Of a stretch of DNA of 64,000 nucleotides, positions 35-44,501 are shown one piece after another. Positions within the stretch are counted from its first letter, which is position 1. Every line of letters begins with the position of its first letter. Below the pieces are notes generated by a model that ran no database searches, had not been told where the DNA came from, and was given only the letters and a program-made list of their open reading frames with translations. The stretch covers positions 640,001 through 704,000 of the forward strand of contig CAXXMV010000001.1 in assembly GCA_963662285.2 (NCBI GenBank), in the 5' to 3' direction. This stretch comes from a bacterium. GTDB taxonomy: Bacteria > Hinthialibacterota > Hinthialibacteria > Hinthialibacterales > Hinthialibacteraceae. The translations under genes were made by a program, and so were the position numbers.

Positions 35-2065
35 TTGGGAGCGAATGCATCTGCATCGCAGGTAGCGCGATTGACCGATATTTTTCCTGCAACGCCGCAA
101 TGCAAAAATCTGGTAGTTGCAGATATTAAATCTTCTGATGTTGATGAGCGAATAACTTTCCTGACCCTTCAAGGCCTAATCAATAAAAAACAGCCCCAGG
201 TATACCTGCTCTCCAATGAGCATTGTGAATTCTGGGTGGATTATTACCAGCAGCGTTTTGATATTCAACATACCCGCACCGACTCGGTCTATACATTGCT
301 GGAAATGTTCCGGGATAAGATTAGCGGATACCGTATATATGATCCCGATAACCTGTACACCATCAATCTAGCGTCGGTGATGGCCAGCCTGGATTATGCG
401 TTGCCGATACATCCACAGCATGAAGCAAAAATGAAGCAGGCCGGTTTGCGATGCATTGATGATTTGCAGGGTAAGTTCAAGGATCGTTATGACGCTTACC
501 GATGGAGTATTGACAATCTATATTCGTTGTGCTCACAACGGGTCATCGCCAATTTCTGCATGGATCGTCCTCATTGGCCATCGCACGTCATCACCGCCTT
601 AGATTTCTTTGTAAGCCGGGATGCGTTCCAGGTTGATTTATCCTCATCAAGGGCGCATCCCAAAGACATGAGCCTGCTGGGTGAAATTTACGAACGCATG
701 GAAAAACCGGGCTGCGTGGTTGGCTGGCATTGCGCCCGCGACCTGGAGCATGAAGCCGTCAGCCTGGCCGCTGATCATGGTATATTCGTCATTTGCAACC
801 TCTCTTCGCCAAACTATTCAATCCATCAAAGCGTAAAACCTGCTGAGCCGTCGACATTATCACAGGCATTGCCGCCCGCCAAACAAGCAGCGAGTACTAA
901 AGTTGAATCCAAGGTTTATATCGCTCCACTTATTACCGATGGCGACGCCGCCTGGGCTATGACTAACCGCATGGATGATAAATGGACTAATAGCGAACGC
1001 GGTAAAGCGCCGATGAACTGGGGATTCATGCCTGCGGTTTATCACTTAGGCCCTGGAATGTTACAGTATTATATAGAGACGCGCACCGATAATGATTATC
1101 TAATCGCCGGACCATCCGGCATTGGATATACCTATCCACACTTGCATCCCGATCCGCTGCCATTTCTGCAAATGACCCGTGAATCCATGAAACGCCTTGA
1201 TCTGCGCATAGCCAATATTGTCACCTGGGACCCCCGGCTATCTCACAAGGGCGTGAATCCGACCGGGTTTCATAACCTGATGAGGCGCGAAATTCCCGAA
1301 GCGTTAGGTTTCGTCAGGGGATTGGGCGATTCCCTTTGGGAACCAAGCATCCTGGATGATGGAGCTCCAGTGGTTTACAGCAGCTTAGCTATCCACCGGG
1401 GCGATGATCCCAATGAACGGCTGCAAGATTTGATCAAAGCCTGCCCTAATCGCCCATTGTTCATATTCGCCTACGTCAATCACAGCATTACGTTGGCGCA
1501 ATTGCTCGAAACCGCCAATAAAAACAGTAAAAATGTCGAATTCCTGCGCCTCGATGAGTTTATGATTAAACTGAAAACAGCCATAAAAACGGGACAGGTG
1601 AAAAACGAATTATATCCTGATAAATCCCGATGCGGCGCGTTGTTAATCAAGGAATTCAGGCCGAAATGGCAATCCGCTCTGGATAGCGTTTTGTCTATGG
1701 AACCTCTTACCGCCGCATCGAAGGAGGAATGCCTAACCCATTTCGCCAAACGCATTGGAGGATGCCAGCAAGACGAACTAGCCGCCGCTTTCCAGTTTGA
1801 CCTATGCCAGAATACCGCCAAACTGGTGCAGATCGCTTGTTACAGCCGGGGAGTATATATCGGCGCCCGGCGCCAAGGCGTCAAGCGCTTTCTTGAATTA
1901 TATGCATCACTACCCGATAAGGAGATCTTTCAACAAATCTCAAAATGGTGGCATGAGTGGGATCAAGGCATACAAACAATCCCTCAACTGCAAAAGGCCC
2001 TGAAACGCATTATTCCAGTCGCCCAATGGTTAAAGCAACAGAATCAAGACTGGCGACAAATATAA
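35..2065 (+). CDS. GxGYxYP-domain putative glycoside hydrolase (5' end may lie upstream of the window)
   Basis: 676-aa ORF with GPSGIGYTYP motif, DGD motif and N-terminal TLQGLIN segment typical of the GxGYxYP family. Confidence 0.7.
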   Translation: MGANASASQVARLTDIFPATPQCKNLVVADIKSSDVDERITFLTLQGLINKKQPQVYLLSNEHCEFWVDYYQQRFDIQHTRTDSVYTLLEMFRDKISGYRIYDPDNLYTINLASVMASLDYALPIHPQHEAKMKQAGLRCIDDLQGKFKDRYDAYRWSIDNLYSLCSQRVIANFCMDRPHWPSHVITALDFFVSRDAFQVDLSSSRAHPKDMSLLGEIYERMEKPGCVVGWHCARDLEHEAVSLAADHGIFVICNLSSPNYSIHQSVKPAEPSTLSQALPPAKQAASTKVESKVYIAPLITDGDAAWAMTNRMDDKWTNSERGKAPMNWGFMPAVYHLGPGMLQYYIETRTDNDYLIAGPSGIGYTYPHLHPDPLPFLQMTRESMKRLDLRIANIVTWDPRLSHKGVNPTGFHNLMRREIPEALGFVRGLGDSLWEPSILDDGAPVVYSSLAIHRGDDPNERLQDLIKACPNRPLFIFAYVNHSITLAQLLETANKNSKNVEFLRLDEFMIKLKTAIKTGQVKNELYPDKSRCGALLIKEFRPKWQSALDSVLSMEPLTAASKEECLTHFAKRIGGCQQDELAAAFQFDLCQNTAKLVQIACYSRGVYIGARRQGVKRFLELYASLPDKEIFQQISKWWHEWDQGIQTIPQLQKALKRIIPVAQWLKQQNQDWRQI

Positions 2066-2296
2066 GCCATTAATTATCTATTAGCGTCTAGAAATCCCTG
2101 TTTTGGGGGATTTTTAGACGCATTTGTAAGAACTATATCCATAAAAACCAGACTAATTCCCAAATCCCCTTTCCAAAGAACTTGAATAATCAGGTTTTGA
2201 GATATAATACTTCCTGACTTATAAATGTTTCTTTCTTCTGGATTTATTCTTGCTTTGCGCAAGATTCAGAAGATTCCTCTTTTAGATGAAATTAAC

Positions 2297-2369
2297 GCTG
2301 GCGTAGCTCAGTTGGTAGAGCAGCTGATTTGTAATCAGCCGGTCGGAGGTTCAAGTCCCCTCGCCAGCT
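2297..2369 (+). tRNA. tRNA-Thr (anticodon TGT); CCA not encoded
   Basis: GCTGGCG/CGCCAGC acceptor stem, AGCTCAGTTGGTAGAGC D-arm, GCTGA-TTTGTAA-TCAGC anticodon arm, GGTTCAAGTCC T-arm. Confidence 0.97.
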
Positions 2370-2371
2370 TA
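2325..2371 (+). repeat. Left att core (TGATTTGTAATCAGCC...CGCCAGCTTA)
   Basis: Identical to 43518-43564; similarity continues 18 bp further with 3 mismatches. Confidence 0.95.
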
Positions 2372-2429
2372 TTCATTTCACTTGACTTAGGAATATTCAA
2401 AGCCTTCCCGTTACCTTTCTAAATACGCG

Positions 2430-2451
2430 AATCGTGCAATGATCGTGCAAT
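2430..2451 (+). promoter_or_regulatory. Putative integrase arm-type sites (tandem CGTGCAA)
   Basis: AATCGTGCAATGATCGTGCAAT; near-identical AATCGTGCAACGACCGTGCAAT at 43380-43401 inside the other end. Confidence 0.65.
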
Positions 2452-3654
2452 TTACTGATTAATAACCAAGCGTGGGAATGGTATTATTCCCGAATCCGCT
2501 GGAGCATTCCACTTAGCAACTGCATCATCAATATATGAAACCACTTTTTCACGAAACAATGGAAGCAACCTTTTTCCTTTATCTCCGTGGTAATGGCGCT
2601 CTCCAATCGATGTTGGTGCATGCCCAACGTAACGCTGCATGTAATACCCATACCATCCGCCATCAATAGATGCCGTTTGGATAGTGTTGCGCAAATCTTT
2701 TGGTTTAATATTGACAGATGAGTTCCATCTTAGTATTTCCCGGCGAACCGCGTGTGAGTAATTATCGAATGCAGCGTAACCGGGAATTACTGGTCCTTGG
2801 GGATCAACCAAAGGTCGCACTCTACGTAACAACCGTGCAACAACCATTGATACAGGAATTTTTCTAATGCGATAATGATTCTTAACGACCCCATCAATCG
2901 TGATAGTTTCGTCTTTTAGATCGACTTTTTCCCATGTGAGACGAAGGGCTTCTTGTAACTGAAGCCCAGCCAATCCTTGGAGGGCGATGCCCACAATGAG
3001 GCCGTCTAGACCTTCTTTCCGCGCCAACCAATCCAAAAAATTTAATACCTGATGAATAGATAGGTAGGGATTTCCTTCATCTTCGTTATAAGTCGAAGGA
3101 TGAGATTCTTTCCTAGACAACCTAATACCTTGGCAGAAATTTGTATAATGCTTTGGCCAATTTGATGCTACCCATGCGGCTGAACGGCGTATTGGTAGCA
3201 GATAAAGTCGGATTGAATCAAAGGCAAAACCATGATCTACGAGATATTTTTGGTAATTCAATACATGCTCGTATCGAAGTTCATGCCAATATGTTAGTCC
3301 TAGTTTATCTACCCACTCCAAAAAATATTCGCAGAATTTTTCATCTTTCCGTCGTGTATATTCTGCCCAGTTGCGCGTCTTCGCAGCCCGTAAGAGCGCA
3401 TCGCTGATCTGAAGAGGTTCGAAAGCGTTGGATTGTTGGACTCCAGTAGCCTGTGTGGCTTGTTCCTCCAAGACATCATTCGCCAGGGTCATGGCCTCAT
3501 TCAAGTCTTTGGCATCAAACCGTATCCGGCGATACTTGCCGCTGGAATCTCTGCCGCTGACTTTCCACCGCCCCGGCTTTTCCTGATGGAGTGTGAACCT
3601 GTCTGTTTTGTATTTGTTTGCTTCGTTTTTCAAAGAACTCGGGTTTTTTATCAA
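2452..3654 (-). CDS. int: Tyrosine recombinase / integrase (likely TTG start at 3654; ORF track starts at 3702)
   Basis: GLQLQEALRLTWEKVDL, KDLRNT, VGH...HY motifs (degenerate R-K-H-R-H-Y set); adjacent to att; AGAAAGGA RBS before TTG 3654. Confidence 0.85.
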   Translation of the reverse strand: MIKNPSSLKNEANKYKTDRFTLHQEKPGRWKVSGRDSSGKYRRIRFDAKDLNEAMTLANDVLEEQATQATGVQQSNAFEPLQISDALLRAAKTRNWAEYTRRKDEKFCEYFLEWVDKLGLTYWHELRYEHVLNYQKYLVDHGFAFDSIRLYLLPIRRSAAWVASNWPKHYTNFCQGIRLSRKESHPSTYNEDEGNPYLSIHQVLNFLDWLARKEGLDGLIVGIALQGLAGLQLQEALRLTWEKVDLKDETITIDGVVKNHYRIRKIPVSMVVARLLRRVRPLVDPQGPVIPGYAAFDNYSHAVRREILRWNSSVNIKPKDLRNTIQTASIDGGWYGYYMQRYVGHAPTSIGERHYHGDKGKRLLPLFREKVVSYIDDAVAKWNAPADSGIIPFPRLVINQ

Positions 3655-5947: not shown

Positions 5948-8604
5948 ATTACTATCCTCCTTCGCGGTTCATTTATTACATCTTTAGGAGGATCAGGAGG
6001 GGGATCTGTCTCTTCAAGCATAGAAAAGAGAGAAAGTTGTATAGGAGTTTTGTTTAAGGATCCGTGATTTGCGTCATGAGCGTCAGTTGTCTCCGGATCC
6101 ATCACGCTACACACGGTACTTACGGTGTTTTGAGTGTTTTTAGTTATCTCAAAGAGGCGCTGTGATTTTTTAGTGGTAGCATTCCATTCCGTATCATTAG
6201 GTGGGGTAACATCAATGCCAATTTTCCGTAAGGAGGGAATTAATCTACGAATTCGATTTGATAAGGTCCTTGGATAATCAGGCCAAGATTTAGTTCGCTG
6301 AATTCGTTCGGGAACATATCCGCCAAGTTCTATTAGCAGATCTTGAGCAATACCTTCCCACGTCAGTCTCGTTTCCATTAACTTTACTATGGCCGATGCG
6401 ATGGGATCTTCTTCCAATACTTTCTCAATAGCATTCGCTTGGTTTCTTTCATAAATTTCTAAAAACCTCCCAGGTGCGCACTCAAGAGCGGGTTCAGCAG
6501 CTGTAGCTAAACAGGCGAAATCAACCATTCGAGGTTTTCGCGGCAGTTGGACTTTGTTAATGTTCTTCAAAGCCACACTGAGTGCATCAAAAATTGCCCC
6601 AAGGATTAAAGGGCTTTCTCGATTAAATTTTTCCCAGAACACTGTTTCTTCAATTCGCTGTGTATCGTTAATTGGAGGAAGATGTATATTTAACATACGG
6701 TCGATCAAGTCCGGTTGGTGGGCAAAATCGACTATTCCATTTAGTATGACTGGACACAACACGTTAAATTGAATCTCTTCATCATCTGTGTACAGTTTTC
6801 GTGTGGAAAAACCGCCGCCAGTAGAAAGCCTGCAAAGAGAATCAGAATTCTCTAGAGAAAGATTTGACAGATTGTCAAACGCGAGAATTCCTTGATGTTG
6901 GACTGAAATAATCAAGTCTCTTTCATTTTTTGGAAAGGCTCTTAGGGGATTGTTAACCGGATCTATCAAAGAACGAACCACTCTTGTTGCCGTGCTCTTT
7001 GCGCTACCGTGTTCACCTTGCAAATTCAAGATTGGTTTTGGCGTATTAAGCCGGAACGCTTCTAGTATCCAACTGACCAGGAGCACCAAATCATCATCCT
7101 TTTCTAAATTAATAAACTTTTTCAGAGACTTAACCGACCCGCCGCGCCGAGGGGTGGGGAGGGGGAGCATTCCGCTCGGCTGGAGAAATCGGATTATTTC
7201 ATTTTTAGTTATATCCCAACCAGAAGATGTTATGCTTACTACTTCTCCGCATGCATTCGCCAGATCTACATAGATGGTACCGTGATTCTCCGCAATGCGC
7301 GTGTATACCTCGGATTGAGTTCCTTCGTATAATCCCTTTGCTTCTAATAGATCTATAGCATCTTGTAATGGTTGTTTGCTGAGAGATTTTTTGTATTTAT
7401 TAAAATACCTGTAATGTAGAATGCTTGATATTTTTTTGCTACGGACAGGGTATGTTTTATTACATGTCTTCTCAGATATAGTAGCATATGCTTTCTCATC
7501 TTTTGTATGGAAAAGTTCAAAGTCCGTGATAAGCGGACCGATTCCCGATGGTAAAGATTCGTCGCTTTCTGTGTTGGGAGTATTCTTCTCTTGTGAATCG
7601 TTATAATGAGCGTTCGTATGAGCAAGAGCATTTTGGATGGTTTGGCGCCGGTAATCTTCACGTTCCCATTTTTCACGATACAACTTGGATTGACGAAAAA
7701 TACGATCAATTTGGTTCAGCGACTGCGTCCAGAATGCAAGAATACAGCATAAGGCTGAATCCGCTTCAGACGCCGACCCGTATCCGGTGATATCTCCAGC
7801 GTATAACCTCTGAAACAGTGAACCATTCTTCGCTGATTTAGCACGGGCTATAAGGTCTTCATCACTCATCTTCTCGGCACAGATAGTGGCTGGAAGTGAT
7901 GCAGAATCGTCATCAAACAACTGCTGGAATAGACCGTTTAATTCAGTCGTTCGCTCTTGGATGGATAAGGATTGTCCCTTAAGACGATTCCCTGTAACAG
8001 TGAAATAGCGGCCTTGGTCATACAGTTCAATACCACCTTTGCGGTTGTGTCCAGACGGTAGGCTGCCTTTAATGATTACATGCAAGCCCTGTCCACTGGG
8101 GGTTATTTCCGTGTACGAATCCATTTTGTCGACTATTTCTTGCGCCCAATCCTCCAATCGTTCGGTGCCTGGATCGTAGCAATGGTCCAGATCAATCCCA
8201 ACATAAGGATCATCGCCAGTGAATACAAAGCCAATCCCATCAAATCCGCCGTTATTAAAACTTTGCAATGCATCATCATGAGTCGCCCAAGTAGAAAGAT
8301 CATTTATACGTGCCGGGCTACCATTGGCCTGATATGGTACTTTCGTTATCTTGCCGTTGCGCTCTTGTTTTCTCCAAAGTACCCATTGAGGTTGTTGCTT
8401 AATCTCAACAGGAATGTTTTCCTGTTTGACTTGGGGTGACTGGTTATCCATACATACTGTTGTGTTGCCCTTTGTCTTTGCGTCATTTGAAGAATCGTTG
8501 GATACCTCTACTTCCTGGGATTGCCCCATGAAATCTAAAACATCTTGACTTATACTACTCATAACAGAACTCCTTATAGTTTTGTCAGGGAGGGGCTTCC
8601 GCAT
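5944..8604 (-). CDS. Primase-polymerase (NrS-1-like) fused to a P-loop ATPase/helicase domain
   Basis: KVPY, GIGFVF, GIDLDHC, TEITPSGQGLH, ELYDQGRYFTVTG, SEADSALC motifs; Walker A-like GEHGSAKST; 4-bp overlap with polA; start uncertain. Confidence 0.85.
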   Translation of the reverse strand: MRKPLPDKTIRSSVMSSISQDVLDFMGQSQEVEVSNDSSNDAKTKGNTTVCMDNQSPQVKQENIPVEIKQQPQWVLWRKQERNGKITKVPYQANGSPARINDLSTWATHDDALQSFNNGGFDGIGFVFTGDDPYVGIDLDHCYDPGTERLEDWAQEIVDKMDSYTEITPSGQGLHVIIKGSLPSGHNRKGGIELYDQGRYFTVTGNRLKGQSLSIQERTTELNGLFQQLFDDDSASLPATICAEKMSDEDLIARAKSAKNGSLFQRLYAGDITGYGSASEADSALCCILAFWTQSLNQIDRIFRQSKLYREKWEREDYRRQTIQNALAHTNAHYNDSQEKNTPNTESDESLPSGIGPLITDFELFHTKDEKAYATISEKTCNKTYPVRSKKISSILHYRYFNKYKKSLSKQPLQDAIDLLEAKGLYEGTQSEVYTRIAENHGTIYVDLANACGEVVSITSSGWDITKNEIIRFLQPSGMLPLPTPRRGGSVKSLKKFINLEKDDDLVLLVSWILEAFRLNTPKPILNLQGEHGSAKSTATRVVRSLIDPVNNPLRAFPKNERDLIISVQHQGILAFDNLSNLSLENSDSLCRLSTGGGFSTRKLYTDDEEIQFNVLCPVILNGIVDFAHQPDLIDRMLNIHLPPINDTQRIEETVFWEKFNRESPLILGAIFDALSVALKNINKVQLPRKPRMVDFACLATAAEPALECAPGRFLEIYERNQANAIEKVLEEDPIASAIVKLMETRLTWEGIAQDLLIELGGYVPERIQRTKSWPDYPRTLSNRIRRLIPSLRKIGIDVTPPNDTEWNATTKKSQRLFEITKNTQNTVSTVCSVMDPETTDAHDANHGSLNKTPIQLSLFSMLEETDPPPDPPKDVINEPRRRIVI

Positions 8605-35198: not shown

Positions 35199-35356
35199 GG
35201 CTTGGTAATCGCCCTGGCAGAACCTTCTGCTTTCGCTTACCAGCCCCGCCAAGGCAGTTTTTTGTTTGCACGGATTCTCACCGTGTCGGGGATGGAACTG
35301 GACTCCTTGTATACTCCTGAACGATTCGCACCGTCCAGATCTGATATTTGGGAGTA

Positions 35357-35470
35357 CTGCACAAACGAAAACCCCTGTTGTTTTTCCTGTTGTTGGGGTT
35401 GTTCCTGTTACGATTTGCAGAACGGCAGTTCCTGGTGTTGTTGTTCCAGCTGCCGCCCCGAAGAACCCTG
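35357..35470 (-). ncRNA. DGR template repeat (TR)
   Basis: 114 bp, ungapped match to the VR at 36995-37108; AAC-rich, reading [37 protein letters not shown] in the VR frame. Confidence 0.96.
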
Positions 35471-36541
35471 AGCGTCCATCCCTTCTACTCGTTGGAAAAC
35501 CAACGGGCCTATTACTTTTTCCCGCAACCGCCAACTATCTGCATGAGATACATGAGCAATCCAACTCATAATTCGTTGTTTTGCATCGTTTAAGTTTACT
35601 TCTTCATTGCTATACGCTTTTTGCAATTCTCTGAATCTGCTTCTGGCTTTCTGTACATTGCCAGAGACAACGCGAACATAATTTTGAAATACCCTGTATC
35701 CCAAGAATGTTATACCTTTGGAAACTGAGAAAATTTGGCTCTTGATTGGATGGATAATCAATCGGTTATGCTCTAGAAATCTTTCAATTTGAATACGCCA
35801 TTCTTGTAATTGTTCTTTGGAATCAGATAAAAGTACGAAATCATCCACATATCGTAAATAAGTCTCACATTTCAATGTTTCAATTACAAAATGGTCAAAT
35901 GGATTCAAGAAAATATTGGCGAAATGCTGGCTGGTCAAATTACCGATGGGAATGCCGCGACGGCGTTCGATATGAGTAAAAAGGTCGTCACTTGGGAAAT
36001 ACTCCACGATTTCTTCTTGAGGATTACTGGCGTCAATGATGGTATCCAGGAGCCAAAGTGTATTGGGACACTTGATCTTTTTTCGCAATAATCCTTTGAG
36101 AATTGCATGATCTATGCTGGGAAAATATTTTCGGATATCTGCTTTGAAAACATAGTTATATCTTTTGGCATAATACTTTAGGGCTTGTATGGCCCGATGC
36201 GTTCCATACCCGTTTCGGTTAGCGAAGGTTTTGTTCGTGTATGTGTTTTCAAATATGGGCATCACTATTTGGCAAACCGCGTGATGGATCACTCTATCCC
36301 GGTAAGGCGCGGCGGAAATGTAACGTCTTTTGGTATCGAATACTTCAAAGCAGGTATAATCCCCAGGCCAATACGAATGATTTAGAAGTTCTTGCTGAAG
36401 TTTCATAAGATTCTTTTCCAAATCGTAGTTAAAGCGAAGCACTTGGTCATGATACCGCTTACCCCGTTGAGCGTTTTTTGCGGCGCGAACCAGGTTATCC
36501 CAGGTTACGATTTGAGAGAACAAGTTACTATGTCTTTTCAT
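35408..36541 (-). CDS. DGR reverse transcriptase
   Basis: [29 protein letters not shown] (DGR-type), [12 protein letters not shown]. Confidence 0.97.
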
Positions 36542-36885
36542 GCTGACCTTCCCTGTTGCCGCAGCCAGCCGCCCAGCATGGAGCCGATTTCATTCATATT
36601 GACGCTGGCGAATTCGTATTGGCGGTTGCTGAAAATATTGAAATCTTTGAGAAGGCGGGTTTGAAATCGAATGACCTCCAAATCCACGTTCAGTTTTCGT
36701 AATATTTCGTTCCGTGCGCGACTATACCTTGCCTGGATAAGGCCTTCCAATAGACCATAAAGCAACGATGTCATCCTATTTCCCAAACCAAAGCGGTGAT
36801 CCCGCGGCATGCGGTTTAGATGGGGTATATACCATAGAATCAAATCGTAAGTTTTTTGTATGATGGGCAGTTCTTTTTCGCTCAT
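36538..36885 (-). CDS. avd: DGR accessory protein Avd (four-helix bundle)
   Basis: YDLILW, PRDHRFGLG, EIGSMLGGW; ATGA overlap with the RT gene. Confidence 0.92.
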   Translation of the reverse strand: MSEKELPIIQKTYDLILWYIPHLNRMPRDHRFGLGNRMTSLLYGLLEGLIQARYSRARNEILRKLNVDLEVIRFQTRLLKDFNIFSNRQYEFASVNMNEIGSMLGGWLRQQGRSA

Positions 36886-36913
36886 TCTTATATACTCCCA
36901 AAAAAAATCGCGT

Positions 36914-36926
36914 CGGGCTTCGCCCG
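36914..36926 (-). promoter_or_regulatory. GC-rich hairpin downstream of the VR (candidate DGR homing hairpin and/or terminator)
   Basis: Minus strand CGGGC-GAA-GCCCG followed shortly by a T tract, ~60 bp after the target stop codon. Confidence 0.6.
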
Positions 36927-36984
36927 CATTTTAAAATGGAAAAAATTTAAATGGCAAATGGTAAAATAGTAATATACCAAATGG

Positions 36985-39525
36985 CTACTGAGTCCTGCAC
37001 AAACGAAAACCCCCGCCGTCCCTCCCGCTGCCGGGGACGCTCCCGCAACGATTCGCAGAACGGCAGACCCAGGTGACGTAGTACCAGCTGCCGCCCCGAA
37101 GAACCCTGTACGAGCCAGAACTTGCACCTTCAGGATCATTGTTTGGAGAATTGGCATAATAATTGCTATCATACCAATCATTACACCACTCCCACACATT
37201 GCCGCTCATATCAAACAGACCAAATTCATTTGGTAATTTCGTTCCGACTTCATGGGTCTTTGATCCCGAATTGCTAGTATACCAGGCATAATCGCCAATA
37301 TTTCCATTTTCCCAATAATAATCTGTCGTTGTTCCTGCCCGGCAAGCGTATTCCCATTCAGCTTCTGTTGGCAAGCGAAAAGTCCCATATCCCATCTCAT
37401 TCAGTTTTTGAATAAAGGTCTGGCAATCATTCCAGGAAACTTGTTCTACTGGATGGTTGTCTCCACTGAAACGTGATGGATTGCTCCCCATCACCGCCTG
37501 CCACTGCGCTTGGGTCACCTCATACATCCCCATATAGAAATCTTTAGAGATTGTAACCTCATGAATCGGTTTTTCATCTGAATCACCAGAATTACTACCC
37601 ATATCGAAAGTACCCGCCGGGATTTTAACCATAACCAGTTCCTTCGCCCCGGCGGGGAGAGTTAGGGAAATGGTTTCAGTTTCTTTGTTTTCTGCTGATT
37701 TCAGAACTTCCTGCACCGCATAATAGGCGGATTTGGCATTGTAATTGTCATCGAATAGCAATGGAGTTCCCCAGCCGGGATAGGTTTCGGGAATCCAGGT
37801 ATACTTGTCTGTGAATCCCCACATGATTAATCCCGTACAATTATCCGCTAATAGACAAGCATCTAATATGCTGGCATAGATATTCGCTTGCTCGTCTAGC
37901 ATTGCTTGCGTTGCGGGCTGCTTCAGGCTGACATCCAGTTCTGTAATCTGGCATTCCACACCAATCTCTGCAAAACGATTCATATAAGCGATTAAATCAA
38001 CGGATGATGGCACTGGGGCAGGAGCATGGATTCCAGTGGATGGATCAGACGCATTGACGCCTAGATGCATTTGCAGCCCGACGCCGTCAATGGGAACGCC
38101 ATTTTCTTTGAGCGCTTTCACCAGATCATAGATTCGTTCCGATTTATCCCCCAAACCTTCCGGATCGTAATCGTTGTAGAACAGTTTAATGTCAGCACCG
38201 ATGTTTGATGCGGCTACGTAAGCATACTCAAAGGCCAACTCGACATATTCAGCACCAATCTTATCTGCCCAGAACGAATTTACACTGTTATCGTCTACTT
38301 TAGAACTTAGCCTAATAACAGGATTATCCACGTAATCTAACGCCAAATCTCCTTGATCGGGCACAGCCTCGTTTACCACATCCCAAATGATAACGCGTCC
38401 GGGAAAGTTATCAGCGAAGTGTGTGACGACCGTCTCAATATAACCATGGAGAAGAGCAATTGCATCGACCTTATCTAATTCAACCTGATGTTTCTCAAGC
38501 CACGATGGAAGATTGTTGTATTTCGGGTTGTGCCAAACCAGGGCATGGCCCCGCACATGCATGTCATTGGCGGCGGCGAACTCGACGATTGAGTCTGCAT
38601 CTCCCCAGTTGTAGTCTGAGGCAGTGATGTTTTCCCAGTTAATGTTTGGGTTATACAACAGCGCGTCCATCTTCATCTCATTTTCAGGGGTGATGATGTT
38701 AAACTCACGCGCCAGCGTAGCCTTGTAGTTCTGGTCGTTCCATGGGGTGTTTTGGATAGTTCCGTTACTGTTCCAGGTATTCATACGGATTGAAGAGCCT
38801 ATTTTGAAGTTGGCTTTGTCAGCGTAGGTGCGCAATCTTTCACCATCAGGCTCTATAACTAAAATTGAAGAATTATTCTCATCGGGAACTATACTAATTG
38901 TATTTGGATCATCCCCATCGCCATCCAAAAACGCGCCGTCGTAATATCTACCTGATTCGAGGAGATAGACGTCAAAGTTATCGATGTAAAAAGTTACCGT
39001 TCTACCGCTGTTTTCAGGATTGTGAAGCTGGATGAACGGATCGAATCCCAATCCCGGTGGAACAAACAAAACAGAAACCTGTCTCCATTTGTTGTGAAAT
39101 TCAGATAAACCCGCCGGGCTGTTGGTGGGCACATCGATAGAACCGCTTTTCCCAATCGCCCCTATCGTGATAGAGCCTTCAGTGCCGTCCATTCTTACAT
39201 TGCAGCGAATCAGGGCAGCGTTGATTGCGTTAAACGATTTATTAAAAATCATAACGCCTTCGCCCGGATCGGCGGTGACGCGAACCCCAATCCCATCCGT
39301 AGCGCTCTCGAATGAGTTGTTCGTGGGTATTGTCACGCCAAACTGAACATCGGCTAAAGGTAAAGCGCCAAAACCAGCGCCTTGTATTGTTATGCCATTG
39401 GCTGCTGCGGATTTACCAGCAAAATCAATACGTATAGGATCATCCTGGGCATAGATAGTCTGACATAATATAATACTAATAAATACATATAACACATTCA
39501 CGAATAAATTCTTCATAATAATCAC
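36985..39525 (-). CDS. DGR target: secreted protein with GH10 xylanase-like domain and C-terminal FGE-type CLec domain containing the VR
   Basis: Signal peptide; GH10 motifs TPENEMK, GHALVWH, WDVVNEA, YNDY, GLQMH, ITELDV; FGE motifs [30 protein letters not shown]...GFRL. Confidence 0.93.
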   Translation of the reverse strand: MIIMKNLFVNVLYVFISIILCQTIYAQDDPIRIDFAGKSAAANGITIQGAGFGALPLADVQFGVTIPTNNSFESATDGIGVRVTADPGEGVMIFNKSFNAINAALIRCNVRMDGTEGSITIGAIGKSGSIDVPTNSPAGLSEFHNKWRQVSVLFVPPGLGFDPFIQLHNPENSGRTVTFYIDNFDVYLLESGRYYDGAFLDGDGDDPNTISIVPDENNSSILVIEPDGERLRTYADKANFKIGSSIRMNTWNSNGTIQNTPWNDQNYKATLAREFNIITPENEMKMDALLYNPNINWENITASDYNWGDADSIVEFAAANDMHVRGHALVWHNPKYNNLPSWLEKHQVELDKVDAIALLHGYIETVVTHFADNFPGRVIIWDVVNEAVPDQGDLALDYVDNPVIRLSSKVDDNSVNSFWADKIGAEYVELAFEYAYVAASNIGADIKLFYNDYDPEGLGDKSERIYDLVKALKENGVPIDGVGLQMHLGVNASDPSTGIHAPAPVPSSVDLIAYMNRFAEIGVECQITELDVSLKQPATQAMLDEQANIYASILDACLLADNCTGLIMWGFTDKYTWIPETYPGWGTPLLFDDNYNAKSAYYAVQEVLKSAENKETETISLTLPAGAKELVMVKIPAGTFDMGSNSGDSDEKPIHEVTISKDFYMGMYEVTQAQWQAVMGSNPSRFSGDNHPVEQVSWNDCQTFIQKLNEMGYGTFRLPTEAEWEYACRAGTTTDYYWENGNIGDYAWYTSNSGSKTHEVGTKLPNEFGLFDMSGNVWEWCNDWYDSNYYANSPNNDPEGASSGSYRVLRGGSWYYVTWVCRSANRCGSVPGSGRDGGGFRLCRTQ
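36995..37108 (-). repeat. DGR variable repeat (VR)
   Basis: 24 mismatches to the TR, all at TR adenines on the coding strand. Confidence 0.96.
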
Positions 39526-39643: not shown

Positions 39644-39967
39644 TCACAGCAACCCTTTTACCCACATAATACAATTTTCAACGATTCCAAAGGTGGCAAG
39701 GATGATTGGTTTGACTTGTTCATTCCGCATTGCATATTCAAGCGCCCACAATGTTAGAATCGAATAAATGATTGTTAGAATCTTTATGATCAGTATTTCT
39801 TCCACTATGCGGCGGCATTTGGCGCGGAAGGGCAGTTCACGGAAGGTTGCTTTTCGGCGGCGGGGCCGAGGGATGAATACAATTTCCCCATACTGGTTAA
39901 CCTCATAGTCTCCCCGGCGATCATTGGTCGGCATGGTTCCAAGAGGACTTTGATACAATCGAGCCAT
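39644..39967 (-). CDS. Hypothetical membrane protein, last gene of the E2-JAB-E1 operon
   Basis: AAGGAG RBS, basic N-terminal half, hydrophobic C-terminal segments. Confidence 0.6.
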   Translation of the reverse strand: MARLYQSPLGTMPTNDRRGDYEVNQYGEIVFIPRPRRRKATFRELPFRAKCRRIVEEILIIKILTIIYSILTLWALEYAMRNEQVKPIILATFGIVENCIMWVKGLL

Positions 39968-41197: not shown

Positions 41198-42094
41198 TCA
41201 CCCATATTGGACGAGCGCTGATAGGGATTTTCTCATCCGACTATACTGCTGAATCGCTTTAGCTATCGATTCTCCCACTTGACGCTGCATTGGAATAAAA
41301 CGGTTACGCCACGCTCCATAACTTAATTCGATTAACAATTCTTTCGGCTTACTTTTATCAGATAAAACGTAAGCATAATGCTCTGCGCCCCGCTTTGCAT
41401 ACAACGCTGCATATTTGGCTTTGCCCGAATAAAAGACTGTTGTTTCAAAGCCATGAGCATTCATCTCTGATGTTTCGTCATCAATGAAATGTTGGAATGT
41501 AGAATGTATATCTTCTGGTATGGCAAATACATTTGATACAGAACAGGGTGTGGATGATTCGATTTTAAGTGATTGCGCAATATCTTTATGGGTGTCTTCG
41601 ACCCAGTGCAATTGCAAAGGATCGAAACCAGTCAGGTCTTTGCGCAATTCATAGGCGCAAATCCGCCATCCCTGTTTCCCCTTTTTATGATTCATTGTTA
41701 CTATGAATGACAAGAGGGGGCCAATTGAAAGATCCCAGCCGTCTTTTTGCACCATACGCACGGCTTGACGTAGATCGCCCTTGCTGGGCGTATGAAAGGA
41801 GCCTGGGTGTTTATGCCAGTATCCCAGTACATGAACCCTGTTCTGATGATGCCATTTGATGATATTGAGCAGCAGTTGATCGAATTCTGCATCGTTTGAA
41901 CAATGGATAATATCAAGATCCGAATTCGGACCAGCAGGAAAGGCATAGAGCAGCGCTGGATCAGAGCAAGTTCCAACCAGCAAACCGACGGTCTCCTGGT
42001 TGAGGTTTTTGTTGCATTCCGATTCGATGACGGCGAGACAAGACCAGGATGCAGGCATCACTTTGGCGAACAAAGGAATCGAGAGAATATTCAA
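41198..42094 (-). CDS. JAB/MPN-domain metallopeptidase with C-terminal extension
   Basis: ETVGLLVG and GYWHKHPGSFHTPSKGD (E...HxH-x7-S-x2-D JAMM motif). Confidence 0.88.
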   Translation of the reverse strand: MNILSIPLFAKVMPASWSCLAVIESECNKNLNQETVGLLVGTCSDPALLYAFPAGPNSDLDIIHCSNDAEFDQLLLNIIKWHHQNRVHVLGYWHKHPGSFHTPSKGDLRQAVRMVQKDGWDLSIGPLLSFIVTMNHKKGKQGWRICAYELRKDLTGFDPLQLHWVEDTHKDIAQSLKIESSTPCSVSNVFAIPEDIHSTFQHFIDDETSEMNAHGFETTVFYSGKAKYAALYAKRGAEHYAYVLSDKSKPKELLIELSYGAWRNRFIPMQRQVGESIAKAIQQYSRMRKSLSALVQYG

Positions 42095-42097
42095 CGA

Positions 42098-42529
42098 TCA
42101 AGCCCTCCTTCGCAGCAGAGGGTTGGATGATTCCCGCTGATTTTCCCATTTGTTGCCATCTGGCCAATGTTTGGTTCGGCGATACTCCTCATACGACCGT
42201 ATCCATCCACAAGCCCAATCGAGAATCACTTTACCGGACGTTTGAGGCCCAACATCATCAACCCCCCACAAACACAAACGACCATCGCCAAACATGTGGG
42301 GAGCAGGATTGATGCGGGGCGATGTAATGACAACTTCGGGGTGATCGTAGGGAAAACGGTCGGGATAATACATCATTATATTGTACAGTTTCCCTTTCCA
42401 GCGGAATTTCAGATAGACCTCTATCCTCCCTTTGCGTTGAGATATGCGGGTATTGGGATAGACCTTGTTGATTAAATTGGTTTCAAGCCGTAAACGTTCA
42501 GGCAGACGTATATACCAAGGTTTCATCAC
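42098..42529 (-). CDS. Ubiquitin-conjugating E2-like protein
   Basis: RLRLE, YPDRFPYDHP, PHMFGDGRLCL (HxxxxGxxC catalytic motif). Confidence 0.85.
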   Translation of the reverse strand: MMKPWYIRLPERLRLETNLINKVYPNTRISQRKGRIEVYLKFRWKGKLYNIMMYYPDRFPYDHPEVVITSPRINPAPHMFGDGRLCLWGVDDVGPQTSGKVILDWACGWIRSYEEYRRTKHWPDGNKWENQRESSNPLLRRRA

Positions 42530-42596: not shown

Positions 42597-42764
42597 TTAA
42601 TGCCAGGTCGTTTTCTTCACATCATCCCGCTGATCCTGCTTATCCAGGTTAATAGTGACAACCTCTCGATCCTGAGGCGACATGTCCCGTCCCAGTAAAG
42701 GGCGTGGTTCCGGAGCGTCGTGGCTTTCTTCTTCGAAATTGGGGGTATTGGGCTGATCAGGCAT
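42597..42764 (-). CDS. 55-aa acidic peptide, first gene of the E2-JAB-E1 operon (absent from the ORF track)
   Basis: AAGGAGA RBS ~6 nt before ATG; MPDQPNTPNFEEESHDAPEPRPLLGRDMSPQDREVVTINLDKQDQRDDVKKTTWH*. Confidence 0.7.
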   Translation of the reverse strand: MPDQPNTPNFEEESHDAPEPRPLLGRDMSPQDREVVTINLDKQDQRDDVKKTTWH

Positions 42765-42932
42765 AGTATTTCTCCTTCTATTTTTAAAGTATGATTAAAA
42801 AAAGACAAAACTATCCCTCAGAAGTGATTTATATTTACATAAACCACTCAAAACAATATGGTTATAGATAGAAATAAGGATGGGAAACTTAAAGGATGGC
42901 TCCCGAAGGCAAGGGCATAGAAGATCAATCGC

Positions 42933-42981
42933 ATCGCATTACTTACCCAGGTAATGTAATGCGATAATAAAATAAAGTCAA
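42933..42981 (-). promoter_or_regulatory. Sigma70-type promoter overlapped by a 33-bp palindrome
   Basis: Minus strand TTGACT-17bp-TACATT; plus-strand palindrome ATCGCATTAC-TTACC-CA-GGTAA-T-GTAATGCGAT covers the -10 box. Confidence 0.6.
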
Positions 42982-43517
42982 GCGCTTTTTTCATTTTTTT
43001 ACACTAAAAGATTTGGTGGAATTCTAAGAAGCAACCGTAGAGCTAAAGATGCCGCGATTATCTGACTCCTGAGCTGAGCAAGGAGCAACCAGCACCAATG
43101 ACCACGCAAAGATAACGTATAACAGAAGCATTAATTGAATAGAGCCACGCTGAACCATGATTTCACCCGCATTTCGGAATAGCCAAAATAAATCGAATGA
43201 TAGGATTATCTCAAAAAACAGAAGAAGAGTCTACTTGAGAGAGAGATTTCAACATAAACAGCGGATAATATTTGATTTGCAGACTATTATATTTGTTATG
43301 GGCTGTGGAGGGTGCAATGAGTTATAACCTGACTTGATCCATCACTCCAATTACGATGCGAACGGCGCTTCTATTTTGAAATCGTGCAACGACCGTGCAA
43401 TACAGGGGTGGTTTGAGGGGGTCTGAGGGTGGTCTGAGGGTGGTGTCAACGTGAGGGCAAGATGAGTAAGTGTTTCTAAATGCTTGCTTTACTGATATTT
43501 ACGTGAATTGATGAATG

Positions 43518-43805: not shown

Positions 43806-44501
43806 ATGCAATTAAATGTCCAAGAGGTTTCACAATTGCTAAACGTATCAGATAAAACGATTTATCGATGGGTTAGCCAGGGTGAAATACCCGCATACAA
43901 ATTCAAGGATCAATATCGTTTCAACGAAGCTGAGATTCTTGAATGGGCGATTATCAGGAAAATCAATATTTCCACCAATTTATTAGACGCATCGGAAACG
44001 AAGAATATCGTAACGCCGAAACTCTCCGAGGTTTTGCAGAATGGCGGTATTTTTTATCGTCTGGAGGGCAATGATTCCAGTGCGGCGATCAGTTCATTGA
44101 TCAAATCTTTACCAATTCTCGATGCACCGGTGCGTCAATTTTTGTTGGAAAGTTACATAGCGCGTGAATCTCTTAATTCGACGGCTGTGGGTGACGGGAT
44201 CGCCATCCCCCATTCGCGGGTTCGCGTGGTGCCTTATATCGTACGCCCGATGGCAGCCTTAGGATTTCTTGAAAACCCGGTTGATTTTAAGGCCCTGGAT
44301 GGTCAGCCTGTCCAGATATTGTTCACTGTCTTAAGTCCCAATTTGCGGGATCATCTGCGCATTCTTTCCCGCTTCATGTTGGCATTAAACGATCCAGAAT
44401 TCCGGGAAGCTCTACGAAAACAGGAATTGCGTGAAACGATTTTGAACCATTGCCGCCGTATTGATGAAAGTTCTACCCCTTCAAAGAATCCTAATCCGTA
44501 A
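43806..44501 (+). CDS. PTS IIA (Ntr/Fru-type) protein with N-terminal excisionase-like HTH
   Basis: VSQLLNVSDKTIYRW..GEIPAYK; RE..STAVGDGIAIPH; DGQPV. Confidence 0.9.
   Translation: MQLNVQEVSQLLNVSDKTIYRWVSQGEIPAYKFKDQYRFNEAEILEWAIIRKINISTNLLDASETKNIVTPKLSEVLQNGGIFYRLEGNDSSAAISSLIKSLPILDAPVRQFLLESYIARESLNSTAVGDGIAIPHSRVRVVPYIVRPMAALGFLENPVDFKALDGQPVQILFTVLSPNLRDHLRILSRFMLALNDPEFREALRKQELRETILNHCRRIDESSTPSKNPNP

Follow-up and report, generated by a model that had tools for sequence, protein, structure and literature searches.

Can a ubiquitin-type conjugation cascade work on a modifier that lacks the ubiquitin fold entirely? Bacterial operons of E1, E2 and JAB genes, such as type II CBASS (antiphage signalling based on cyclic oligonucleotides) and the bacterial ISG15-like (Bil) and bacterial ubiquitination-like (Bub) systems, are becoming established as forerunners of ubiquitin signalling and as antiviral defences, and to our knowledge the conjugated moiety is in all described cases a beta-grasp protein or else an enzyme's tail. 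The question is raised by five genes on the minus strand of a 64,000-nucleotide (nt) stretch of bacterial DNA (contig CAXXMV010000001.1 of assembly GCA_963662285.2, positions 640,001 to 704,000), the whole of which we refer to as the window. This cassette encodes, in order, a mini-protein of 55 amino acids (aa), an E2, a JAB peptidase, a ThiF-type E1 and a small membrane protein. The open reading frame (ORF) of the mini-protein was unannotated, and an original prediction, made from the sequence of the window, proposed it to be a Pup-like tag or a precursor of the RiPP type (ribosomally synthesized and post-translationally modified peptide). We propose that the mini-protein is a disordered substrate or tag that is conjugated by the E1/E2 cascade, which is the best single reading of the locus and to which we give a probability of about 0.45.

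The mini-protein gene and the parts of it that matter here are located as follows:

42597..42764, minus strand: mini-protein gene, 55 aa, ATG start, TAA stop at 42597-42599

42772..42778, minus strand: Shine-Dalgarno sequence AAGGAGA, 7 nt 5' of the mini-protein ATG, read from the sequence

42704..42690, minus strand: invariant RPLLG, residues 21-25 of the mini-protein

42635..42600, minus strand: invariant tail DQRDDVKKTTWH, the last 12 residues of the mini-protein

The full translation of the ORF is MPDQPNTPNFEEESHDAPEPRPLLGRDMSPQDREVVTINLDKQDQRDDVKKTTWH, which at its C-terminal end reads ...DDVKKTTWH. With eight Asp, seven Pro and five Glu among its 55 residues, the protein, of 6.45 kDa, has an isoelectric point of 4.6 and a grand average of hydropathy of -1.57, and its sole glycine is G25, within PRPLLG-R. 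The ORF is thus present where the original prediction had it, together with the KKTTWH ending, the AAGGAGA ribosome binding site, the richness in Pro, Asp and Glu and the solely internal Gly. The overlapping 63-aa ORF in a different frame, which had also been pointed out, exists as well (TTG start, 42617..42808, minus strand). It is not conserved, since stop codons close both alternative frames of the region at the corresponding locus in G020, which belongs to the same order but to a different family and was found by a whole-genome search with the neighbouring E2 (56% identical).

Is the 55-aa ORF a real gene? Directly upstream of the G020 E2 lies an ORF of 54 aa that ends in the identical 12 residues and carries its own GGAGG site, 8 nt upstream of the ATG. 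When the two loci are compared over the last 12 codons, 8 differences are synonymous and none is non-synonymous, a pattern for which the probability by chance is ~1e-6 (site counts S 6.5 and N 29.5, with uniform changes assumed). For the ORF taken as a whole, there is saturation at synonymous sites and the proportion of non-synonymous differences (pN) is 0.31. Three further protein copies are found in public data, namely P0001 (96% identical), P0002 (G020-like) and P0003 (60% identical). In the alignment of the five known sequences, no variation is seen at RPL[LI]G (21-25), D27, M28, L40 and D41 or anywhere in the C-terminal 12 residues; residues 1-20 are variable. All five carry the same tail, all five end in His, and in none of them does a Gly occur within the last 30 residues. 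The original prediction had suggested searching for the ORF upstream of homologous E2 genes, and had named a lack of conservation in homologous loci, together with a lack of evidence of translation, as what would speak against it; what is found is an ORF in the G020 locus and three database proteins that share the C-terminal 12 residues. Synteny, the ribosome binding sites in two loci and the 8-to-0 codon pattern together make it almost certain that the once unannotated ORF is a genuine, translated and conserved gene.

A spurious ORF, of which the conservation stems from a DNA or RNA element, would agree with the absence of any family match for the mini-protein in Pfam, NCBIfam and PADLOC, and the ESM Atlas likewise gave no usable match (best score 0.83). 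It would however have to account for a tail in which only third codon positions change, and for strong Shine-Dalgarno sites in two diverged loci. DNA conservation between the window and G020 ends shortly past the mini-protein stop codon, and the intergenic DNA is poorly conserved. Furthermore, a scan of the locus with Rfam gave no match that reached or came near the gathering threshold, and folding of the RNA around the mini-protein stop and the E2 start was not significant (z -1.1 and -1.05). Because of the codon pattern, a spurious ORF is practically excluded. A scan for promoters and terminators found 11 against 9.6 expected, which is no excess over chance.

The cassette forms a tight operon, and its other four genes, which all lie downstream of the mini-protein, are:

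42098..42526, minus strand: E2-like conjugating enzyme, 142 aa when counted from the ATG at 42526, with a GGAGG site before this ATG

41198..42094, minus strand: JAB/JAMM metallopeptidase, 298 aa, including a C-terminal extension of ~150 aa

39986..41191, minus strand: ThiF-type E1, 401 aa, with an N-terminal domain (1-95), an adenylation domain (89-377) and two CxxC pairs

39644..39967, minus strand: small membrane protein, 107 aa, with a conserved N-terminal motif, a basic linker and one hydrophobic helix

G020 carries all five of these genes, arranged in the same order, with identities between the two loci of 57% for the mini-protein, 56% for the E2, 45% for the JAB, 52% for the E1 and 36% for the membrane protein. 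The untranslated gap between the first ORF and the E2 measures 70 nt in the window and 61 nt in G020; at a distant locus in G113, described below, it is 84 nt. It is very probable that the mini-protein is functionally part of the E2-JAB-E1 cassette.

Judged by their motifs, the three enzymes look active. The E2 is matched by the CBASS-type E2 models of PADLOC (best E 2.7e-11) and by Pfam UQ_con at E 0.006, under the family cut-off, and its best match in the PDB is UBE2W (E 4.6e-6); His78 and Cys86 are invariant in 4/4 sequences (alignment A3; the numbering follows the 143-aa form, as the ORF list starts one codon earlier, at a GTG). The JAB exceeds the cut-off of Pfam Prok-JAB (E 2.2e-6), matches the JAB model of PADLOC (E 6.6e-9), and has its JAMM residues E34, H94xH96, S104 and D107 intact and invariant in 3/3 loci. 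The E1 is recognized by Pfam ThiF (E 1.6e-34) and by the Cap2-type 'E1-E2' model of PADLOC (E 5.5e-29), the latter aligning from residue 59, upstream of the adenylation domain. Ten of its residues are invariant among 26 sequences (alignment A4), being R98, N150, S152, R153, K165 and D213 at the nucleotide site and C257, C260, C361 and C364 as the zinc cysteines of the two CxxC pairs, and the candidate catalytic Cys237 is kept in at least 90% of them. The catalytic role of these conserved residues is one that we assume from established knowledge of MoeB/ThiF, JAMM and UBC enzymes.

An AlphaFold2 (AF2) model of the E1, with a predicted local distance difference test (pLDDT) score of 81, resembles ThiF and MoeB with a Z of 27 over residues 89-365, and for the extra N-terminal domain (1-95) an all-beta structure is predicted. 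Structure searches with this model aligned almost solely residues 89-377. At the level of sequence, MccB (E 1.1e-10) and PaaA (E 5e-11) are matched by the E1 about as closely as ThiF is, which brings up the possibility that the mini-protein is a RiPP precursor, adenylated and modified by an MccB/PaaA-like E1 and subsequently trimmed and exported. An extra N-terminal domain is also present in MccB, and an ORF of precursor size does head the operon. However, the peptide has no C-terminal Asn, no Cys and few Ser or Thr, the operon holds a JAB and an E2 whose catalytic Cys is intact in place of a transporter or immunity gene, and the N-terminal domain of the E1, if all-beta as predicted, would differ from a winged-helix peptide clamp. 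A RiPP precursor is thus the least probable of the readings in which the ORF is taken to be a gene, and we consider it very unlikely.

The small membrane protein carries an N-terminal motif that reads Y.SPL..P..DR.G.YE[VI]NQYGEIV, and G020 has a homologue of it (36% identity) at the matching place. The E1 of G113 is followed by a positional analogue that also has a hydrophobic helix, and the maximum 19-aa Kyte-Doolittle scores of the membrane proteins are 2.3-3.0. Searches of Pfam, PADLOC and NCBIfam gave no family match for it, and the ESM Atlas gave no usable one.

So what would these enzymes conjugate? No gene for a beta-grasp ubiquitin-like protein (Ubl) occurs in the cassette, and a cyclase (SMODS, PF18144) was found neither among the ORFs of the operon nor in genome G000, which is 92.5% complete. 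On the strength of its sequence matches, we take the cassette to be a 'split' relative of the Cap2/Cap3 conjugation module of CBASS, from which the cyclase was lost or in which it was never present. It would be a rare variant of the known E1/E2/JAB systems, one without a ubiquitin-like gene. For an E1/E2 cascade, the substrate has to have a defined C-terminus. When the window is compared with G020, the E2, the JAB, the E1 and the membrane protein show no conservation at their C-termini; only that of the mini-protein is kept, with its last 12 residues identical. It is because the cascade needs a defined C-terminus, and because among the five proteins only the mini-protein has a conserved one, that we read the mini-protein as the substrate. 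There is a precedent for a substrate of this kind. According to the accessible text of Ledvina et al. (10.1101/2022.03.31.486616), the substrate of type II CBASS Cap2 is not a Ubl, but the C-terminal tail of the cyclase, which is disordered and conserved, and the JAB peptidase Cap3 cuts exactly after the last residue of this tail. Given this precedent in the closest relatives of the enzymes, the mini-protein can be read as a cyclase-type tail that has become free-standing.

In the mechanism that we propose, a dimer of the E1 would bind the invariant C-terminal tail of the mini-protein and adenylate a C-terminal carboxylate. The mini-protein would then be passed on as a thioester, first to a cysteine of the E1, for which Cys237 is the candidate, and subsequently to Cys86 of the E2, after which it would be ligated to an amino group of a target. 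The JAB peptidase may remove or process the tag, and the membrane protein would likely serve as effector, anchor or target. We infer every biochemical step of this mechanism. Two sub-variants, which in general form had been raised by the original prediction, can be told apart by the terminus that is used. In the first, His55 would be activated directly, which is doubtful. In the second, which we deem slightly more doubtful, the JAB would cleave after the invariant RPL[LI]G25 and expose a Gly terminus, the resulting ...RPLLG end resembling the tail of a Ubl. Equally tentative as the direct activation of His55 is the more specific idea that a free-standing, disordered peptide acts as a dedicated modifier that is recognized only via its 12-residue tail and activated at a His C-terminus. 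The tag of the original prediction therefore lives on as a candidate tag for E1/E2 machinery, based on the sole conserved C-terminus and a weak complex score (below); it does so outside the Pup family, given the lack of a GGQ/GGE end and of any Pup-ligase gene found in the 92.5%-complete genome, and the RiPP-like precursor has become unlikely for want of a C-terminal Asn, a Cys and genes for export or immunity.

With an alignment of only five sequences as input, AF2 modelled the mini-protein alone with a pLDDT of 62 and a predicted template modelling (pTM) score of 0.25, showing one low-confidence helix (30-49) and no strands. The mini-protein is accordingly predicted to be intrinsically disordered. 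That it would not adopt a beta-grasp fold had already been suggested by the original prediction, and agrees with the lack of strands in the model, the lack of a match in Pfam and NCBIfam and the polar, Pro-rich composition. A beta-grasp Ubl was rejected as a candidate, as no strands are predicted, no family matches, and the last 30 residues hold no Gly.

We also predicted a complex of two copies of the E1 with ATP, Mg and the mini-protein. This reached a score of 0.41 (0.41, 0.47 and 0.36 in the separate runs), and the best of 3 controls scored 0.01. At least 49% of contacts are shared between the runs, with a pLDDT of the partner of at least 40. In the calibration of this score, the mark was reached by 58/80 solved complexes and 2/110 mismatched pairs; at scores of 0.60 or lower it was reached by just 7/80 solved complexes together with both of the mismatched pairs that pass, and these counts are only approximate here because own alignments and riding ligands were used. 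The prediction lends weak support to binding of the mini-protein by the E1.

The same score can be explained in a different manner. The mini-protein could be a regulator or pseudo-substrate that is not conjugated, of which the tail binds the E1 (or the JAB or E2) and holds the cascade off, or serves as adaptor, up to its degradation or displacement, for instance upon infection by a phage; the true substrate would then be found elsewhere. Conservation, synteny and the weak E1-binding score (0.41 versus 0.01 for the control) fit this equally well, and a bulky Trp-His end suits a blocker better than a substrate for adenylation. Moreover, small proteins that are acidic and disordered are common as labile inhibitors. 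Nonetheless, the cassette has no other candidate substrate to offer, the other four C-termini being unconserved, and the 92.5%-complete genome yielded no cyclase. Nor does any other frame in the genome end in the same tail; a single one ends in ...TTWH, about the number expected by chance. We regard a regulator as unlikely.

The tail also contains two invariant lysines, Lys50 and Lys51, which would allow for the mini-protein to be the acceptor instead of the donor, being conjugated at these lysines or forming chains on itself. Chain formation by CBASS E2 systems has been reported in the accessible part of a preprint. Since an acceptor would still leave a donor with a conserved C-terminus missing, this role is improbable.

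Returning to the mini-protein as a substrate or tag, several points weigh against it. Its end, ...TWH, is bulky, whereas the terminus of known E1 substrates is Gly, or Gly/Ala. For the route via His55, it is of importance that changing the terminal Gly to Glu abolished defence in the CBASS of V. cholerae (accessible text of Ledvina et al., 10.1101/2022.03.31.486616). For the route via Gly25, the 30 residues past this glycine are the best conserved part of the mini-protein, which cleavage does not explain. The complex score of 0.41 lies in a band in which, by the tool's own account, wrong results outnumber right ones unless the pairing was already likely, and the prediction reported no interface; whether the tail or the RPLLG region would be the binding part is therefore not decided by the score. 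In addition, only five sequences from about three lineages are known, two of them with DNA. The search of representative proteins gave no matching mini-protein for the ~60 relatives of the E1 that are 40-48% identical, which means that the tag is either not general, or evolves past recognition. Finally, an invariant C-terminal stretch behind a variable N-terminus would also be expected of a ribosome-arrest or leader peptide.

Such a peptide would act in cis, its nascent chain stalling the ribosome at the stop codon or close to it and thereby controlling translation or transcription of the E2-JAB-E1 genes that begin 61-84 nt downstream. The variable N-terminus, the more conserved second half and the 12 residues that are invariant right up to the stop codon are in line with this, and so is the ORF always being the first, followed by an untranslated gap. 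The mini-protein family is furthermore far narrower than the enzyme family. On the other hand, no significant RNA structure joins the end of the ORF to the ribosome binding site of the E2 (z -1.1 and -1.05), the intergenic sequence is not conserved, and the cascade would be left without a substrate. RPL[LI]G is also invariant, and at 30 residues from the end would lie at the limit of what the exit tunnel can constrain. An arrest peptide is more unlikely than a regulator, in our estimation, albeit less so than an acceptor.

The mini-protein family is extremely rare. Within the phylum it is found in 2/35 genomes, which are the same two that hold the close E2, and the ORF is present in 2/2 in-family loci with readable DNA upstream of the E2 (the window and G020). 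HMMER returned 2 matches (clusters), of 54 and 55 aa, from 1.84 billion representative proteins, and no longer or fused forms among these; a word-based protein search with the mini-protein gave 1 match, the 96% identical copy. Pattern scans based on the mini-protein alignment revealed no relative in metagenome contigs (429 pattern matches), genome contigs (587) or viral contigs (36). These negatives are weak evidence, because the scan of genome contigs missed a known positive, the G020 contig L009, which is part of that collection and encodes the peptide at E 3e-33; with queries this short and charged, negatives from pattern scans are unreliable. A tblastn search with the mini-protein gave no match in plasmids and phages.

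Scans with the E2 alignment returned just G020 and a metagenome contig of 1643 bp (L008), the upstream region of which is unreadable because the contig begins inside the E2, and the scan of viral contigs found none. A further E2, P0006, is 70% identical and sits on a contig of 7303 bp. Likewise, the E1-based search found none in viral contigs, and just two generic ThiF matches in plasmids. Public protein data hold about 60 relatives of the E1 at 40-48% identity (65 proteins at E <= 1e-10). The E1 profile is matched at E <= 1e-40 in 6/401 genomes, among which G140 and G016 show other architectures (G249 was left uninspected). The family to which the window belongs also has operons of E2 and E1, with or without JAB, that are arranged differently, namely in G005 and G016:

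L010 (G005:C215), 1026-3131: E2 (220 aa), E1 and JAB

L015 (G016:C110), 482-2493: E2, an E1 of 497 aa and then a large uncharacterised protein

No ORF similar to that of the mini-protein lies upstream of the G005 locus, with its E2-E1-JAB order.

A locus in genome G113 (L018, G113:C1, 4680-8493, minus strand), from another phylum and matched by the E1 profile at E 3e-50, offers a more distant comparison. Its order is a sigma-54 activator, a polar ORF of 65 aa, E2, JAB, E1, a 110-aa protein with a hydrophobic helix and a HerA-like ATPase. The 65-aa ORF has a GGAGG-type site and ends in ...RTFGLGEVDAPR, and a profile comparison found it to bear no similarity to the mini-protein family (probability 0.13). 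Chance ORFs are common in G113 because this genome is GC-rich. The JAB reads as two ORFs (6999..6373 and 6369..6076) and is possibly interrupted. Among the 12 genomes in the phylum of G113, no further match was found. As a single distant case, G113 hints that a layout '[small polar protein]-E2-JAB-E1-[membrane protein]' may be general, in which the first gene would be fast-evolving.

Regarding the surroundings of the cassette, its G020 counterpart (L007, G020:C31, 9420-12398) adjoins genes for an IS200-type transposase and a GmrSD-family restriction endonuclease, in what looks like a mobile or defence neighbourhood. The flanks in the window are different, being a cassette of a diversity-generating retroelement (DGR) and a gene for a protein that joins a helix-turn-helix (HTH) to an EIIA domain. 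The five genes, which have different neighbours in the two genomes, thus move as a unit. Upstream of the mini-protein gene on the minus strand, the window furthermore holds two short ORFs, at 42848-42994 (48 aa, hydrophobic) and 43024-43158 (44 aa, with a signal-peptide-like start), neither of which has a counterpart ahead of the cassette in G020. At a distance of about 1 kb upstream, a divergent gene (43806-44501, plus strand) encodes a 231-aa protein in which an excisionase/MerR-type HTH (E 7e-14) is fused to a phosphotransferase system (PTS) EIIA/PtsN-like domain (E 3e-16), and which may be a regulator. Directly downstream of the cassette, the DGR is complete and spans 35352-39525 on the minus strand:

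39525..36985, minus strand: DGR target gene, 846 aa

37108..36990, minus strand: DGR variable repeat

36885..36538, minus strand: DGR Avd-like gene, 115 aa

36541..35408, minus strand: DGR reverse transcriptase

35470..35352, minus strand: DGR template repeat

Its two repeats of 119 nt are 79% identical, with 24/25 mismatches on template adenines.

If the mini-protein is indeed conjugated by the cascade, this would be the first ubiquitin-type conjugation with a modifier that lacks the ubiquitin fold entirely, a convergent, Pup-like solution that is built on Cap2/Cap3-type enzymes. The chemistry of E1 and E2 would then need just a short linear tail, the range of termini that E1 enzymes adenylate would be extended, and the cassette would constitute a minimal, portable module for peptide ligation. 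Should the mini-protein be a regulator or an arrest peptide instead, the cassette would still be a new and experimentally tractable five-gene system with a membrane component.

How does the cassette compare to systems that are already known? Like Pup, the mini-protein would be a tag that is small (about 55-64 aa), acidic, disordered and without a ubiquitin fold. Pup ends in GGQ or GGE, and it is the side-chain carboxylate that is ligated, by a glutamine-synthetase-like ligase. The mini-protein, in contrast, ends in KKTTWH, is accompanied by an E1, an E2 and a JAB, and has no sequence similarity to Pup. PafA/Dop (Pfam Pup_ligase, PF03136) was not found in the 92.5%-complete genome G000, in a search of which the control detected the family in Corynebacterium. 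Membership of the Pup family was rejected on these two grounds, the wrong terminus and no Pup-ligase gene found in the genome. With MccA/MccB and PaaA, the cassette has in common a ThiF-type enzyme with an extra N-terminal domain and a short, unstructured ribosomal peptide, whereas those clusters are without E2 or JAB. Chemistry of the McC type requires a C-terminal Asn in the precursor; an MccA-type precursor was rejected, the C-terminal residue being His in 5/5.

The Bil I/II (6d/6c) and Bub (6e) operons share with the cassette an E1, an E2, a deconjugating peptidase and a small substrate, putative in the cassette, encoded by the first gene. In the accessible parts of Chambers 2023, the Ubls of Bil and Bub are described as beta-grasp proteins with a universally conserved Gly that is followed by up to nine non-conserved residues, and the JAB of type II Bil as pre-processing the Ubl after the conserved Gly. 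The mini-protein differs from these in having no predicted beta-grasp, and in having its sole Gly 30 residues from the end, with the residues that follow being the most conserved. The accessible parts of Iyer 2006 distinguish five operon types, 6a-6e, which go by the modern names of CBASS type II, Bil I/II and Bub; together with those of Chambers 2023, they assign to the 6a-MBL (metallo-beta-lactamase), Bil and Bub gene sets a Ubl or polyUbl, a CEHH-type or inactive E2, a JAB-E1 or E2-E1-JAB fusion and a metallo-beta-lactamase. As far as these descriptions go, the gene set of the cassette differs from all five types. The NCBIfam 6A-MBL cap2_3 model gives 23 bits for the JAB and 63 bits for the E1, far under its cut-off of 320. 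In the literature accessible to us, which did not extend to the supplementary tables on Bil and CBASS that could list such operons, we found no E1-E2-JAB operon whose substrate is described as a free peptide outside the beta-grasp fold.

The closest likeness is to type II CBASS (operon family 6b of Iyer, Burroughs and Aravind), the models of which are the best profile matches of the E2, JAB and E1, and in which, in the parts of the literature available, the substrate is a disordered C-terminal tail that is not a beta-grasp either. There are differences. Unlike in type II CBASS, no CD-NTase, the CBASS cyclase, was found in the operon or in the 92.5%-complete genome G000, and without a cyclase the cassette is not a member of CBASS. 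Furthermore, E2 and E1 are separate genes here, the JAB has an extra domain of ~150 aa, the putative substrate is a free 55-aa peptide that ends in Trp-His and not in Gly/Ala, and a small membrane protein takes the place of the nucleotide-activated effector. Going by its enzymes, then, the cassette would work most like Cap2 and Cap3.

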